Assembly: GCA_002427535.1 (NCBI GenBank)
Contig: DIRK01000047.1
Span: 1,267 to 65,266 of the forward strand
Length of the DNA: 64,000 bases
Reading direction: 5' to 3'
Origin: Mageeibacillus sp. UBA5438
GTDB taxonomy: Bacteria > Bacillota > Clostridia > Saccharofermentanales > DTU023
Part shown: piece after piece, positions 3,322 to 63,785 of the stretch
Position numbering within the stretch: the stretch's first letter is position 1
Layout of the letters: every line of letters starts with the position of its first letter
Position numbers and translations under genes: made by a program
Notes under the pieces: model-generated
The model's database searches: none
What the model was told of the DNA's origin: nothing
Seen by the model: only the letters and a program-made list of their open reading frames with translations

Positions 3322-4133
3322 CAGAAGAACCCTCCCAATACTTTAGGCCCCACGAACGCAAAGGCTAATAAGAACACCACAAGAACTAAAAAGACAATAT
3401 CCTTCGGATAAAGCTTGGCGGTGTACAACCGGGTCCTCCCCTTCTCTCCCTGGTAACAGCGCGCGTCCATGGCAATCGCCAGATCATCCGCGCGTCGGAA
3501 GCTCGAGATGAAAAGCGGCACCAAAATACTCACAAGACCCCTCGCGCGGCGGATCGGGCCCCCTGTATCGTAATCGGCGCCCCTTGAAGACTGCGCCTTC
3601 ATGATCTTGGCAGACTCATCCATCAGGATGGGAACAAAGCGCAAAGCAATCGACATCATCATGGCAAACTCATGCACGGGAAAACGCAAATAGCGCAAAG
3701 GCGACAAGAGACTTTCCAAAGCATCCGCAATGGCCAAGGGCATCGTGGTCAGCGTCAATAAAAGTGAAGTATTGATCACCATCAAGATGAGGCGCATCGC
3801 CGTCATCGCCCCTGTATAAAGCCCCTCTTTTGAAATCGCGATAGGGCCGATATGAAACAAGATATGTCCCTTTACCGTCACCAGGTGCAAGATGACCGCA
3901 AAAAGAATGATGAATACAAGCGGCCTGACACTTCTTAAGATGGTTGTGATTCGGATTTTGGATAATACCATGAGCATCATGGTCCAAATAAGGAACACCG
4001 CCATAATAATCGGGTCCTGGATGGAGAGGATTGCCACCATGAGAATAATCGCAGCTAAAAACTTGATTCTTGCGTCCAATAAATGGAGCGCCGAATCACC
4101 CGGAATAGAACGGCCGAGCATACTTTTACCCAT
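3321..4133 (-). CDS. ecfT: energy-coupling factor transporter transmembrane subunit EcfT
   Basis: 270-aa polytopic membrane ORF with SRGADYD and RRADDLAIAMDARCY motifs of the CbiQ/EcfT family. Overlaps the ecfA stop. Sits at the canonical rplQ-ecfA-ecfT-truA position. Confidence 0.88.
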   Translation of the reverse strand: MGKSMLGRSIPGDSALHLLDARIKFLAAIILMVAILSIQDPIIMAVFLIWTMMLMVLSKIRITTILRSVRPLVFIILFAVILHLVTVKGHILFHIGPIAISKEGLYTGAMTAMRLILMVINTSLLLTLTTMPLAIADALESLLSPLRYLRFPVHEFAMMMSIALRFVPILMDESAKIMKAQSSRGADYDTGGPIRRARGLVSILVPLFISSFRRADDLAIAMDARCYQGEKGRTRLYTAKLYPKDIVFLVLVVFLLAFAFVGPKVLGGFF

Positions 4134-56862: not shown

Positions 56863-58233
56863 TTATATATCATCACCCAAACGCGTAATGATCCCATGCA
56901 CAATCGCCTTTTCGTACATTTCCCGAAACATCTTCTTTGCTCCCTCGCCAAAACTTATGGACATCGAACTCGTAAAGCTGTCATAGATGATTTTGTCCTC
57001 AAAAGGTAACAGCACCGTTTCAATTTGAGTCGGTAATTTCCTCTGCATAGCGTCTGACAGCGACCGGCTAATGCCCTTAATACCGTACAGCCTGTTTTCT
57101 TTTTGCTCGTTAGTGCCAATCACCACCGCATATTCGGGTTTGTAATCCACCAAAAGGAACATATCCTTCTTGTGGTGATCGCGCCAGGCTTCAAGAAGCG
57201 CGATTTTTCTGTCCGTGAGCGACACGGCGTTCAGGTAATCGTCTATCAATTTTGGATTTTCCCACAAAACCTCGCGCACTTTATAGATCTGCTCGTCACT
57301 GACAGGATTGGGGTAAACCGGCTTGACCACCTCGTTAATGACTTTTTTTTGTTCGTTGACAAAGCTCATTAATCCATACCAAGTTTCATAAAACAGGGCG
57401 CATTCGCTTCTTGAAAGTTGCGCCGTTTGGGATTCCTCGATCAGGAGGCAGCATCTTTTATATTTCTTGCCGCTTCCGCAAGGGCAAGGGTCGTTCCGGC
57501 CTATCATTTTCCTTTCCGACAGGAGGATCTGTGACGGATCGTTTTGGGGAAAGTGGTCTGCAAGATACTTATTCATCTCGTTTGGAGTATGACCTTTATT
57601 TGACCAGAGCCGCATATTGTTACAGGCATCCGTAAACAACTCGAGAAACACCTGGGCTTGTTTTTCGCTGCTAAAAATTAGCCCATATTTTTCAAGAAGC
57701 TCGCCAACTTCGTAAATTCCTGCGCTGAACGCCGAGATTTCCTTTAATTCATTGTAGAATCGGTATCTCTGATTGTTATCCGGCCACTCTTTGACGGCAA
57801 ACTCATGGAGTTTATCCCAGAAAGATGCCTGCGTTTTGCTCTCGTAATATGGGTTTGCAAATTTCAAAAACTCATCCTTTTCAGGGATGAACCTCGGCTT
57901 TTCACCTTGCTTTAAAAGCCAAGCGTCTGCATATTCAAAGTCCTCGATTGCCCAGTAATGGACGATGTTTTCTTTATAAAAGCAATACCATTTATGTTTC
58001 AGTACGAGCGGTAGTAGCAATGTGACCACCTCGTCGGGGGTTGTCTGTTCCTCGTTCTGGCGGTTGAATATTTCTGCAAGTTCTTCCTTAGAAATGACGC
58101 CATAGAGATTTACGGCCGCCCTTGCGTACAGATCAAGCAATTTGCGTACGGGCGCGCGCCCGTACGGGCAGCGGGTTACCGCTTCGACCGGGTTATATTT
58201 CTTAAATATTTTCTGCGACTTACTTCCAGTCAA
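56863..58233 (-). CDS. SEC-C-motif protein of unknown function
   Basis: 456 aa. Internal RNDPCPCGSGKKYKRCC SEC-C metal-binding motif. TTG start at 58233 preceded by GAGGGA-N7. No other recognisable domain. Confidence 0.6.
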   Translation of the reverse strand: MTGSKSQKIFKKYNPVEAVTRCPYGRAPVRKLLDLYARAAVNLYGVISKEELAEIFNRQNEEQTTPDEVVTLLLPLVLKHKWYCFYKENIVHYWAIEDFEYADAWLLKQGEKPRFIPEKDEFLKFANPYYESKTQASFWDKLHEFAVKEWPDNNQRYRFYNELKEISAFSAGIYEVGELLEKYGLIFSSEKQAQVFLELFTDACNNMRLWSNKGHTPNEMNKYLADHFPQNDPSQILLSERKMIGRNDPCPCGSGKKYKRCCLLIEESQTAQLSRSECALFYETWYGLMSFVNEQKKVINEVVKPVYPNPVSDEQIYKVREVLWENPKLIDDYLNAVSLTDRKIALLEAWRDHHKKDMFLLVDYKPEYAVVIGTNEQKENRLYGIKGISRSLSDAMQRKLPTQIETVLLPFEDKIIYDSFTSSMSISFGEGAKKMFREMYEKAIVHGIITRLGDDI

Positions 58234-58326
58234 TTATCATTCCCTCACCTTCGGTTTTAAATCCACGGTGCAAGTACCAGCCGAGCACCTCACGGACAAA
58301 CATATTATAAGCTATTTCGCGTTATA

Positions 58327-58865
58327 GTCGAATCAAGAATGTCGTTGTAAATGCCCTTTCCCCGTGGAGGAGTCTTAGTCCTCTTACCTCGCCGTCCTGG
58401 GACGGTCGAACATTTATTCTTATTCGTTTCATGCCCAATAACTTTTCGGTTTCTCTTTCTCGTATCCGATCGTGGTAGTCAGCCATGTCATTGCATTTCT
58501 TGCCCACTGTCCACTGCTCATGGAGCTCCAATAAAAGAGCGCCCGTTAAGCGCGTCAGACCTTCTTCGTTAGGAAAGATCCGGGATTCCTATGTGCGTGG
58601 TAAGCCCGCGTGCACGGTAACCGTTACGATACGTTTGGCGTTCTTCACTTCGTTCGTACAAGCTTCGCTCCGATCTGGCTTTCTGCCTCCGCATTCAAGA
58701 CCGCGTTAAAAACCCGCTCGAGTAATGGCGAAGTGCATCGCTATCCCCTTTTTCGCCATCCTATTCAATACATCCGATGTTTTACATTAGCCGCATCCTA
58801 CAGGACGGGGATGAGGTGGCTCTTTTTGTGCCAAGCAGTTAACACAACTTTATAGGACACTATCA
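58327..58865 (-). mobile_element. internally deleted IS256-family element (MITE-like), copy 1
   Basis: Minus-strand frames give LERVFNAVLNAEAESQIGA and ERSEERQTYRNGYRARGLTTHIG (IS256 Tnp N-terminus). These are fused out of frame to RIFPNEEGLTRLTGALLLELHEQWTVGKK (Tnp C-terminus). The DDE core is absent. ~92% identical to 59947-60485. Confidence 0.72.
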
Positions 58866-59924
58866 TTAGTCTCCTTCTTCCTGCTTATTATCAGCACTGT
58901 TTCTTACGGCCTTCTTCGCATTCTTTTCTATTTCTTTAACCGTGTCCAGGTAGGCTTCCTCAACAGGCGATATTGTTTTAACCTGATATTTTCTGTACTC
59001 TGCCTTGGCCTTATCGAGTGCCTGTTCTCGACTTATCTTTCCAGCTCCCCGCAACAAGGCTCTGTCACCTGAACCTAAGATACGATCGAGTAGTTCAAGA
59101 TAATCACGCATATACATAGGTTTCTGGTCCATGGCATTGATTTCCGCCAAGTCAAAATAACCCGAGACGAGATTATTTAAAATCTTCAGCTCATTTTCGC
59201 TCAAATAATTCTTAGCTATTCGAATATCTTTTAAGGCGGGCAACTCACCTTGAAAAGTTGTCAGTCCCATGAAGGGTTTTTCGCTGTTTGCTCGCTCATA
59301 GATTATCTCTGCTGCCGTGCGGCCATGAGTAGCATAATGGAGCTTGTTTTGCACAATAGCAAAGAATTTGATTGATTCTTCACTTTTCGGATTGTAATCA
59401 ACGCTGGTGGCGTAAAGATCCAGTACTTGACGGTAAAGAACTTTCTCTGAAGAGCGAATATCCCGGATGCGGCCAAGCAACTCTTTCCAATAGTTGCCGC
59501 CGGCATTTCCTTTAAGCCGCTCATCGTCCAGAGTAAAGCCTTTAATCATATACTCTTTCAATCTGGTAGTCGCCCACTGACGAAAGCGTGTGGCTACAAG
59601 AGACTTTATTCGGTAGCCAAGAGAGATGATCATATCGAGATTATAGTGAGGGATTCTCCGTGCAACCTCTCTTTTACCCTCCGTTCGAACCTGTCGGAAT
59701 TCCCGACAAGTCGCTTTTTCTTCCAGTTCCCCATCTGAATAAATGTTTTTAATATGCTCTACAACGTTTGTCCGGCTGGACTGAAATAGCTCTGCCATCT
59801 GCTGCTGAGTAAGCCACACCGTCTCATCTTCCAGTCGCACATCAATTTTTGCAGAACCGTCCTCAGCTTGATAGATGATGATTTTGCTGTTACTGTCGCT
59901 GTTACTATTTTCTACTGATTCCAC
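58866..59924 (-). CDS. rhuM: RhuM-family protein
   Basis: 352 aa with GTG start behind AAGGGGGAG. IIIYQAEDGSAKIDVRLEDETVWLTQQQMAELFQSSRTNVVEHIKNIY and MIISLGYRIKSLVATRFRQWAT are hallmark RhuM sequences. Confidence 0.85.
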   Translation of the reverse strand: MESVENSNSDSNSKIIIYQAEDGSAKIDVRLEDETVWLTQQQMAELFQSSRTNVVEHIKNIYSDGELEEKATCREFRQVRTEGKREVARRIPHYNLDMIISLGYRIKSLVATRFRQWATTRLKEYMIKGFTLDDERLKGNAGGNYWKELLGRIRDIRSSEKVLYRQVLDLYATSVDYNPKSEESIKFFAIVQNKLHYATHGRTAAEIIYERANSEKPFMGLTTFQGELPALKDIRIAKNYLSENELKILNNLVSGYFDLAEINAMDQKPMYMRDYLELLDRILGSGDRALLRGAGKISREQALDKAKAEYRKYQVKTISPVEEAYLDTVKEIEKNAKKAVRNSADNKQEEGD

Positions 59925-59946
59925 TATTTACTCCCCCTTAAAGCAA

Positions 59947-60485
59947 GTCGAGTCCAGACTGTTGGTGTAAATGCCCTTTCCCCGTAGAGGAGTCTTAGTC
60001 CTCTTACCTTCACGTCCTAGGACGGTCGAACATTTATTCTTATTTGTTTCATGCCCTATAACTTCTCGGTTTCTCTTTCTCGCATCCAATCGTGGTAGTC
60101 AGCCATGTCATTGTATTTCTTGCCCACTGTCCACTGCTCATGGAGCTCCAATAAAAGAGCGCCCATTAAGCGCGTCATACTTTCTTCTTTAGGAAAGATC
60201 CGGGATTCCTATGTGCGTGGTAAGCCCGCGTGCACGGTAACCGTTACGATACGTTTGGCGTTCTTCACTTCGTTCGTACAAGCTTAGCTCCGATCTGGCT
60301 TTCTGCCTCCGCATTCAAGACCGCGTTAAAGACCCGCTCGAGTAATGGGCGTAGTGCATCGCTATCTCCTTTTTCGCCATCCTATTCAATACATCCAATG
60401 TTTACATTAATCACATTCTACAGGAAGAGAATGACGTGGCTCTTTTTGTGGCAAGCAATTTACACCACTTTACGGGACACTATCA
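59947..60485 (-). mobile_element. internally deleted IS256-family element (MITE-like), copy 2
   Basis: Same 539-nt unit and orientation as copy 1, offset exactly 1620 nt. The ends share an inverted GGTGTAAAT core. Abuts the tRNA-Leu terminator U-tract. Confidence 0.72.
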
Positions 60486-60526
60486 AAAAACCACCTGCTG
60501 ACAAAATTTCTTTTATCAACAGATGG
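60486..60526 (-). terminator. rho-independent terminator after tRNA-Leu
   Basis: Minus strand: CCATCTGTTGA-14 nt loop-TCAGCAGGTGG (11-bp stem including two G-U pairs) followed by TTTTT(T). Starts 8 nt after the tRNA CCA end. Confidence 0.7.
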
Positions 60527-60534
60527 TATTTTTT

Positions 60535-60617
60535 TGGTGCGGACAACAGGACTCGAACCTGCATGGTTTCCCACTGGAACCTAAATCCAGCGTGTCTGCC
60601 AATTCCACCATGTCCGC
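60535..60617 (-). tRNA. tRNA-Leu (anticodon UAG), CCA-encoded
   Basis: Hand-folded 83 nt: GCGGACA acceptor pairs with TGTCCGC. Anticodon arm is CTGGA-TTTAGGT-TCCAG. Long variable arm, GGTTCGAGTCC T-loop, ACCA 3' end. TATAAT box lies 8 nt upstream of the 5' end. Confidence 0.9.
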
Positions 60618-62535: not shown

Positions 62536-63144
62536 TTACCGAGGTTTACCAATTTTGTCAAGCGGATAGAAGCGAACGAGCAAACGCCCTTCAATATCTT
62601 TGCGAGAAATGGGGCCTATATCGCGGCTATCGCGGCTTTTTGTCCGATTGTCCCCCATAAGATAATATTCATCCTCTCCCAATTCCACCACCGCATACTC
62701 TGCCACATGTTCGTAAGTCATGAGCCCTTCTTCCAGGTAGGGCTCTTCCAAAAGGACCCCGTCAATGAACACCTGTCCACCCCTGATCGCGACGCGTTCA
62801 CCGGGAAGTCCGATGACCCTTTTAATAATCACCGTCTCGTCGCGTTCCCCCAGCACATGATGCGAATCGGCCGTCACGATATCACCGCGCCCGATGCCAT
62901 TCGGGAAAAGCCGGGTGATCTTTTCAACGAACACCTCATCATGGTCTTCTAACGTCGGACTCATCGACACACCGATCACGGTGTTTCGCTGCAGGACAAA
63001 CTGCGTGATCAGGAGCACGATCCCAAAACAGACAAAAATCATGAGAAGAAGCCCTAATAGCTTACGTCCCAAGCTCTCCTCTTTTACCGGTTGGTCGGTA
63101 TTTTGATGTTCATCTGTCATGTCAGCGTCGCGATCCAATCCCAT
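62536..63144 (-). CDS. lepB: signal peptidase I
   Basis: 202 aa. N-terminal TM, catalytic Ser box GVSMSPTL, Lys box IIKRVIGLPGE, and [15 protein letters not shown]. Confidence 0.92.
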   Translation of the reverse strand: MGLDRDADMTDEHQNTDQPVKEESLGRKLLGLLLMIFVCFGIVLLITQFVLQRNTVIGVSMSPTLEDHDEVFVEKITRLFPNGIGRGDIVTADSHHVLGERDETVIIKRVIGLPGERVAIRGGQVFIDGVLLEEPYLEEGLMTYEHVAEYAVVELGEDEYYLMGDNRTKSRDSRDIGPISRKDIEGRLLVRFYPLDKIGKPR

Positions 63145-63146
63145 CT

Positions 63147-63785
63147 TTACGGTGTCCCAATTCTATCAAAGGGATAAAAACGAAAAATCATGCGTCCTTC
63201 AACATCACGCAAAGCAAAGGGTCCCATACTGCGGCTGTCGTGACTTACCGAGCGATTATCGCCCATCAGGTAGTATTCATCCGCGGCCAATATCACATTG
63301 GCAAATCGCACATCTCTTATCTCGGTCAAGACACCTTCGGGAAGGTAGGGTTCGTTAAGCATGATCCCATCGATAAAGACATTCCCACCACTCAGAATTA
63401 CGTGCTCCAAAGGAAGCCCCACCACACGCTTAATAATGTATTTTTCTTCCTCACTATCCGTGCGGCCCCGCATATCGACCGTGACAATATCGCCTCTTTT
63501 TAACCCGCCCGAGAGGTGCTTTGAAATTTTCTCCACGAAAATCCCGTCCCGTTGTTCCAATGTGGGCAGCATAGACGATCCGACGACCGTATTATGCTGC
63601 AGGGCAAAGGATCGGATCAGGAACACAAGCGCGAAAGCCATGATAAATGTCAGGAAAAAACCGACAAGCTGTCGTCCAAAAGAGGGCGGCTTCTTGTTTT
63701 TTGCTTTTGGAGACCTCAAATGAAGGCCGTCAAAATACGCCTCCAAATTGTCTTGACATGCTAGATTGTCGGGCCTTTTATTCAT
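63147..63785 (-). CDS. lepB: signal peptidase I (second tandem paralogue)
   Basis: 212 aa with [19 protein letters not shown] and [15 protein letters not shown]. 2-nt gap to the downstream paralogue. Confidence 0.92.

Follow-up and report, generated by a model that had tools for sequence, protein, structure and literature searches.

Among the described counterparts of the locus studied here is Tn4001, a compound transposon with the insertion sequence (IS) IS256. In a 64-kb window (the whole stretch of 64,000 nt that was analysed, from contig DIRK01000047.1 of Mageeibacillus sp. UBA5438), a rhuM gene lies between two copies of a 539-bp internally deleted IS256-family element. This unit resembles Tn4001-type compound transposons in having two IS256-family copies around a single accessory gene, but differs from them in that it has no transposase, no flanking duplication and no second site, and in that its two copies are direct rather than inverted. 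Directly repeated IS copies mediate RecA-dependent loss or tandem amplification of the genes that they enclose, and contigs related to the window are alike in showing zero, one or two units at a 1620-bp periodicity, reciprocal chimeras and an identical pair of rhuM genes; here, however, the comparison comes from metagenome assemblies only, and the cargo is a candidate defence gene, not a resistance gene. We consider it probable that the two copies are fossil, non-autonomous IS256 derivatives, that their surroundings were shaped by rearrangements at the IS ends, and that homologous recombination acts on the locus at present. The most fitting description of the locus is that of a rearranged remnant of an island at a tRNA-Leu gene, in which two fossil IS derivatives flank a candidate defence gene and probably allow it to be lost or duplicated through homologous recombination.

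Members of the IS256 family make target repeats of 8-9 bp (PMC3189936), and hybrid promoters have been reported for IS256 (PMC6702299). The parent of the two copies, recovered from other contigs, is like IS256, ISPsy17 and their relatives in its transposase model, its length of 1427 bp, its imperfect terminal inverted repeats and, in one contig (L042; contigs and proteins are cited by our own labels), an 8-bp duplication, and its right inverted repeat (IRR) carries an outward -35-like TTGACT that is comparable to the reported hybrid promoters. The copies in the window differ from the family in being frameshifted and in being without catalytic core, start codon and target duplications. MITEs (miniature transposable elements with inverted repeats) have been proposed to arise from IS by internal deletion and are generally shorter than 300 bp (PMC3189936). 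The remnants resemble bacterial MITEs in being non-coding, in having both IS termini and in their origin by internal deletion, but differ in their greater size, in the lack of a target duplication, in not being dispersed and in that one of the copies has decayed repeats. Finally, a role as a toxin domain has been proposed for RhuM, within multilevel defence that is coupled to restriction-modification (R-M) systems (PMC3710099); the rhuM gene in the window is full-length to both the RhuM and the PDC-S05 models, but it stands alone here, with no R-M or PrrC neighbours. The locus involves no new mechanism, as IS-derived miniatures, hybrid promoters and repeat-mediated amplification are all established. 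What it illustrates is that a dead IS may still shape a locus, by trimming an island down to one candidate defence gene, by probably supplying promoters to the genes on either side, and by leaving direct repeats through which the gene can be lost or duplicated.

Anatomy and parentage of the repeats

A repeat search of the window recovers two copies in the same orientation with a start-to-start distance of 1620 nt, and the global alignment of 58326-58865 with 59946-60485 (coordinates are positions in the window throughout, and most features lie on the minus strand) holds 39 substitutions and two 1-nt indels, or 92.4% identity (blastn E = 0). An earlier reading of the same DNA from its letters alone, referred to below as the sequence-only reading, had described two same-orientation copies at this distance with about 40 substitutions, two 1-nt indels and about 92% identity, in good agreement with these values. 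No third copy of the repeat is found in the window by blastn. Because the termini of the parent fix the ends at GATAGTGTCC...T(C/T)GACT, the true limits of the 539-bp elements are 58326-58864 for copy 1 and 59946-60484 for copy 2 (both on the minus strand); the repeat that had been described is real, and its ends lie 1 nt to the left of where they had been placed. Copy 2, upstream of rhuM, has its left inverted repeat (IRL; GATAGTGTCC...) at 60484 and its IRR (...GGACTCGACT) at 59946, and copy 1 lies downstream of rhuM and upstream of a SEC-C gene. Between them rhuM (58866-59924, minus strand) encodes a full-length RhuM-family protein of 352 aa from a GTG start, separated from copy 1 by 1 nt and from copy 2 by a leader of 21 nt (59925-59945, minus strand). 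The bracketing of rhuM is near-exact, as the sequence-only reading had it, although the spacings of 0 and 22 nt given there have to be replaced by these.

The divergence between the two copies is distributed unevenly along their length, with differences per 100 nt of 16% and 10% at the ends and of 2-5% in the middle. An identical core of 97 nt, at 58569-58665 in copy 1 and as an exact match at 60189-60285 in copy 2, spans the main deletion junction. Under uniform divergence an identical run of 97 nt has P = 0.009, and the uneven divergence is consistent with homogenisation of the core.

Translations of the remnants are frameshifted pieces of a Transposase_mut protein. A protein search with the concatenated remnant peptide returned fragments only and no full-length transposase; two of these fragments (P0001 and P0003) reach past the deletion junction, and their contigs carry a longer element at other loci. 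With a rebuilt query we obtained full-length transposases of 416 aa (P0005 and P0012) at 95-97% identity, a value that is partly circular because the query consisted of fragments of a relative (P0001, L014), the C-terminal translation of the remnant and an invented linker of 10 residues. One of the 416-aa matches is named 'IS256 family transposase [Saccharofermentanales bacterium]', P0012 reaches 373.8 bits (cutoff 150) with the NCBIfam model NF033543 'IS256 family transposase', and Pfam Transposase_mut is precomputed for P0012. In L042 (2896-4322) the parent is 1427 bp long, runs from GATAGTGTCC to GGACTTGACT, encodes one DDE transposase of 416 aa and has a perfect 8-bp target duplication, TGCCAGTC, on its flanks; its terminal inverted repeats are imperfect, with matches at 17/30 positions. 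This is the anatomy of an IS256-family element (about 1.3-1.5 kb, imperfect terminal inverted repeats, a duplication of 8-9 bp). The parent has at least eight different flanks or sites (L042, L013, L014 and L036-L041). It represents a previously unnamed IS256-family element, from anaerobic-digester and fermentation metagenomes.

At the DNA level the remnants are 87% (copy 1) and 88% (copy 2) identical to the parent over 537 aligned nt, and they end exactly at its termini. They align to parent positions 1-76/89 (1-76 in copy 2), 163-339 and 1170-1427, and what is missing from them is the stretch 340-1169 (830 bp) together with about 59 bp around the ribosome-binding site and ATG. With the parent transposase as query, tblastn finds residues 20-86 and 358-416 in both copies and in different frames; the segments show 71-91% protein identity, except for one of 54% across the N-terminal part of copy 1, and about 271 residues, including the catalytic core, are gone from both remnants. 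The terminal inverted repeats match at 18/30 positions in copy 2, close to the value of the parent, and at 11/30 in copy 1, where they have decayed. The deletion junctions are common to copy 1, copy 2 and every strain variant, and we conclude from this that all remnants descend from one deleted progenitor. On these alignments, the description of both repeats as internally deleted, non-coding IS256-family derivatives with both termini is supported. Hence several claims that had been made from the letters alone hold when they are set against a 1427-bp parent that passes the NCBIfam IS256 model, namely that an IS256-family element had been internally deleted with both ends kept, that N- and C-terminal pieces had been joined out of frame, and that a DDE core of about 300 aa had been lost, a figure close to the one measured. 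The full-length element sharing the remnant termini, for which the sequence-only reading had proposed a search, is this parent.

The parent IRR ends in TTGACT, and the parent IRL has TATAAA 10 nt in. If the two were joined via a short spacer in a circular intermediate, they would form a -35/-10 junction promoter.

Target duplications, distribution and flanking DNA

The sequence-only reading had suggested that target duplications of 8 bp be sought, and none is present in any pairing of the four flanks. The flanks of copy 2 (GGTTTTTT and TGCTTTAA) and those of copy 1 (AGACTAAT and ATAACGCG) show no duplication, the outer flanks of the whole unit (GGTTTTTT and ATAACGCG) match at 0/8 positions, and the single remnant in a related contig without rhuM (L029) is likewise without one. 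As to the distribution of the remnant, an exact 23-mer matches this locus only among 185,579 species-representative genomes, and a codon-degenerate pattern of 29 nt matches this locus only among 241 million metagenome records and has zero matches in IMG/VR viral contigs; both patterns turn out to recognise the remnant lineage alone, since the sequence of the parent is different at the positions concerned. In the window and these three collections, no dispersed remnant copies were found, the remnant being present in 2-3 copies at one locus only. The identical RhuM protein was shown at 10 places (21 contigs read), all of them beside the same SEC-C and aminotransferase genes, and neither among the places listed for the identical RhuM nor among the DNA matches was a unit of remnant, rhuM and remnant found at a second genomic site. 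A tblastn search finds no transposase in cis within the unit.

These observations bear on the proposal of the sequence-only reading that the arrangement is a composite transposon whose only cargo is rhuM. In such a transposon the remnant pair and rhuM would have moved as a unit, mobilised in trans by the parent transposase acting on the IRL of copy 2 and the IRR of copy 1. A composite bracket is indeed present, in that two directly oriented elements of the same family, each with both of its termini, surround a single cargo gene; the outer IRL of copy 2 is intact, and there is a parent, found in the same samples, whose 416-aa transposase is intact. However, the 8-9-bp duplication that such a movement would leave is absent, the unit is confined to one chromosomal locus in all collections searched, the outer IRR of copy 1 has decayed and lies at a deletion endpoint within a truncated gene, and the DNA outside copy 2 varies by strain while the inner structure remains constant. 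We regard the composite transposon as very improbable, and the locus is not supported as one: it is not demonstrably a mobile transposon, but an IS-shaped accessory locus of an ordinary kind. The sequence-only reading had itself named the occurrence of the repeat at this locus only as what would speak against mobility, and on present data the repeat is so confined. Its term MITE-like is fair for the anatomy, as the remnants are non-coding and frameshifted at 539 bp and carry deletions of 830 bp and about 59 bp, but the dispersal in trans that defines a MITE is not seen, and dispersed copies are the part of that claim that does not stand. For annotation the locus is a warning that a gene flanked by IS should not be taken for the cargo of a composite transposon unless there are target duplications or a second site.

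Three points weigh against our view of the locus as a fossil. Two of the three full-length parent copies for which both flanks are available, on short contigs, are also without a duplication, and since target duplications go missing even from full-length elements in such data, their absence around the remnants is weak evidence. Moreover, metagenome-assembled genomes and short contigs under-represent repeats, so that further remnant copies could be missed, and the parent fragments are tied to the window only by co-occurrence in samples (ERZ27283067 and ERZ922856).

The outer neighbour of copy 2 changes between strains: at least four unrelated sequences take this place, and each meets the element precisely at GATAG. 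The interval from tRNA-Leu to copy 2 is a hotspot of variation. In the window this neighbour is the tRNA terminator, with nothing else between the tRNA-Leu gene and copy 2 (60485-60534). In L002 (6228-8890) and L010, a block of 2.46 kb with a mazE antitoxin and an ABC transporter follows the same terminator; in L025 (reverse complement, 1-738), the neighbour is an open reading frame (ORF) cut by the IRL, with a weak, sub-threshold match to the helix-turn-helix of sigma-70 region 4; and in L004 (1-266), it is another, unidentified sequence. In L026, the first ~318 nt of copy 2 itself are replaced by the end of a gene with a DUF4368 domain, a domain typical of large serine recombinases.

On the other side of the unit, 92 nt (58234-58325, minus strand) separate the IRR of copy 1 from the start of the SEC-C gene. 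They are the 3' stump of a gene of 205-209 aa that is found ahead of SEC-C in relatives, and the break coincides exactly with the IS terminus (the window reads IAYNMFVREVLGWYLHRGFK, the relatives QFCDMFIRFIEAHGWFFGGGFK). The remaining part of the truncated gene is found nowhere nearby; because the gene ends exactly at the IS terminus and its rest is absent, the cut is to be read as a deletion endpoint and not as an insertion. Homologues of SEC-C, at 77-81% identity, have a different gene context in each contig examined (L044, L046 and L047), with a MobA/MobL relaxase gene about 5 kb downstream in L044 and Macro and WapI genes in L046. Their operon is conserved and runs from a product of 80 aa through one of 205-209 aa and SEC-C to one of 33/135 aa and beyond, of which the window keeps only SEC-C and the 92-nt stump. 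These contexts show that the SEC-C gene is itself island-derived and not a core gene. A truly empty site without the remnant, which the sequence-only reading had put forward as a comparison, was not found among these relatives, where the SEC-C homologues sit in unrelated mobile-element contexts.

Taken as they stand, the junctions point to rearrangements anchored at the IS ends, either adjacent deletions or recombination between IS copies. Such rearrangements would account for the lack of duplications and equally for the minimal cargo, which consists of the 21-nt leader, the ORF and 1 nt. We infer the following order of events for the locus. A progenitor IS256-family element would have lost 830 bp of its transposase core and about 59 bp around its start codon, and the deleted progenitor would then have been copied, most simply by transposition in trans, since both copies end exactly at IS termini. 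The copies would have come to lie in a degenerate, strain-variable island downstream of tRNA-Leu, where later rearrangements at the exact IS ends, through IS-mediated adjacent deletions or IS-IS recombination, may have removed the target duplications, trimmed the DNA to a minimal rhuM cassette and truncated the operon preceding SEC-C. As 539-bp direct repeats with an identical core of 97 nt, the copies would now act as substrates for homologous recombination, whose outcome would be either the loss of rhuM, with a single chimeric remnant left behind, or a duplication of the 1620-bp unit.

Copy-number variants and recombination between the repeats

Related contigs show zero, one and two copies of rhuM at this locus. 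L029, from JGI 3300029822 and reached through a lookup with the LepA of the window, has lepA, the tRNA, the terminator, one remnant and SEC-C, and no rhuM. At the 41 sites that distinguish the two copies, the first 21 in its remnant are of the copy-2 type and the last 20 are of the copy-1 type, with a single clean switch that falls inside the 97-nt identical core; private differences are absent from the remnant. At the other extreme, L010 (GCA_964485345.1; the GTDB representative 'uncultured Clostridiaceae bacterium') carries two rhuM genes among three remnants, with a periodicity of 1620 nt, and its two rhuM copies show 0/1059 nt differences. The middle remnant of L010 is first of the copy-1 type and then of the copy-2 type, as the reciprocal product would be, and its crossover lies in an identical stretch of 44 nt that adjoins the 97-nt core. 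The contigs with zero, one and two units and the reciprocal chimeras fit unequal homologous recombination between the repeats.

Several features of the data weigh against this. The 0- and 2-copy forms are both contigs of short-read metagenomes, L010 coming from a co-assembly, with their crossovers in or beside the identical core; a repeat loop traversed wrongly in assembly would give the same 0- and 2-copy sequences; and many contigs, as well as one scaffold gap, break exactly at this core. If both contigs were assembly artefacts of the repeat loop, then the remnants would be inert scars and the locus would be stably single-copy in all strains. The 97-nt and 44-nt stretches that hold the crossovers are indeed as long as, or longer than, the k-mer sizes of many short-read assemblers, and the lack of private differences in the L029 remnant also agrees with such an origin. 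However, L029 is unbroken for 7.3 kb across the repeat, where others break, and it comes from a strain that is about 0.4% diverged in the flanks. In L010, the middle remnant and the downstream remnant of the same contig disagree at 9 informative sites in their 5' halves, and because of this difference a simple double traversal of one strain's loop cannot yield L010. Furthermore, other strains have short gene-conversion patches that are bounded by identity tracts of a few tens of nt, and in L043 the type switches within an identity window of 7-17 nt, too short for an artefact of the assembly graph. We judge the artefact explanation unlikely, though by no means negligible, and we infer from the unbroken contig, the informative sites and the conversion patches that the recombinant molecules are probably real.

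A different history for the second copy has the same two contigs as its main witnesses. One remnant may have inserted alone and a circular unit of remnant plus rhuM may then have recombined into it, by segmental duplication or recombination. This would need a resident and an incoming partner, and the single remnant of L029 and the middle remnant of L010 fit these roles exactly; the missing target duplications around the individual copies would also be accounted for. Yet the single remnant in L029 also lacks a target duplication, and the copies are 8% diverged, which implies that their histories have long been separate; in addition, the origin of the remnant-linked rhuM is shifted to another genome, and no donor was found in the collections scanned. 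We consider this course of events improbable, and prefer the copying of a deleted progenitor followed by rearrangement at its ends.

One may also ask whether the remnants are being retained as a working cassette, in which copy 2 would provide the sole promoter of rhuM, a potentially toxic defence gene, and the homogenised 97-nt core would let the population reversibly delete, regain or amplify the 1620-bp unit. If true, this would turn a dead transposon into a switch for the number of copies of a defence gene; we find it quite doubtful.

A patch of about 65 nt (remnant positions ~229-295; L002 10512-11050, L010 3296-3816) differs from the window copies mainly at third-codon positions of the old transposase frame (YRNGYRARGLTTHIG against YSNGYRTRGLTTYIG). 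As most of the changes are synonymous, the patch may stem from gene conversion by a relative of the IS that was still coding. Two other apparent variants were rejected: the 144-nt insertion in copy 2 of L008 is not real but a scaffold N-run (120 nt, 3692-3811, with duplicated edges), and the odd head of L021 (1-86) is a GC-rich palindromic assembly artefact. Each of them falls within the identical core, at the branching point of the assembly graph.

RhuM, candidate promoters and neighbouring genes

The RhuM protein matches Pfam PF13310 (Virulence_RhuM) at E = 2e-106 and 355 bits (cutoff 33.7) over profile positions 1-248 of 252, and PADLOC PDC-S05 (PDLC04843) at E = 1.3e-154 over positions 4-328 of 330. 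Because the PDC-S05 match spans the whole profile, the adjacent remnant has not truncated RhuM; homologues of the protein are common on plasmids, and plasmid homologues annotated as 'virulence RhuM family protein' align out to residues 327-352. From these profile matches, rhuM is a candidate single-gene anti-phage defence. The 21-nt leader in front of it holds a Shine-Dalgarno sequence, AAGGGGGAG, 6 nt 5' of the GTG, and is identical across all strain variants and in both units of the 2-copy contig.

Upstream of copy 2 lies the tRNA-Leu gene (60535-60617, minus strand; anticodon TAG by ARAGORN; 55.9 bits with the Rfam tRNA model), followed by an intrinsic terminator (60490-60527, minus strand) with a 17-pair stem and then TTTTT, and the IRL of copy 2 begins straight after this T-run. 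With this terminator in front of copy 2 and no more than 21 nt between copy 2 and the GTG, the promoter of rhuM most likely lies within copy 2. The sequence-only reading had noted that the gap between copy 2 and rhuM is too small for a promoter, which agrees with this leader and with a terminator placed directly upstream of copy 2, and its inference of rhuM expression from within or through copy 2 is reasonable. Against a promoter within copy 2 stands that a convincing one was not found there: the sole match, 9/12, is at the junction of terminator and IRL and borrows two T's from the terminator, and the last 220 nt of copy 2, read by eye, hold nothing better. A hybrid promoter for rhuM with the -35 of the IRR was rejected, as its -10 would overlap the start codon.

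For the SEC-C gene (56863-58233, minus strand), which encodes 456 aa with a SEC-C motif match, has no assigned function and is the gene directly downstream of copy 1, a candidate hybrid promoter is found at 58304-58331 (minus strand) as a match to the consensus only. The final 6 nt of copy 1's IRR provide its -35, TCGACT (TTGACT in the parent IRR), and its -10, TATAAT, stands in the flank after a spacer of 16 nt, with 10/12 consensus matches in all. Together these two boxes, the first of them pointing outward from copy 1, may serve the SEC-C gene as a promoter, in the manner of the IS256 hybrid promoters mentioned above.

At the junction of rhuM and copy 1, the stop codon of rhuM is followed by two further in-frame stops across the IS terminus (TAA TGA TAG; 58860-58872). 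An IRL of this IS family, when preceded by a T, closes one incoming reading frame.

The tRNA-Leu gene is the conserved edge of the strain-variable region in the related contigs compared. Rfam finds no structured RNA other than this tRNA. The tRNA-Leu gene is preceded by lepA (62495-60684, minus strand), and upstream of lepA are two tandem paralogues of signal peptidase I (Peptidase_S26; 62536-63144 and 63147-63785, minus strand), an arrangement that is kept in all related contigs.

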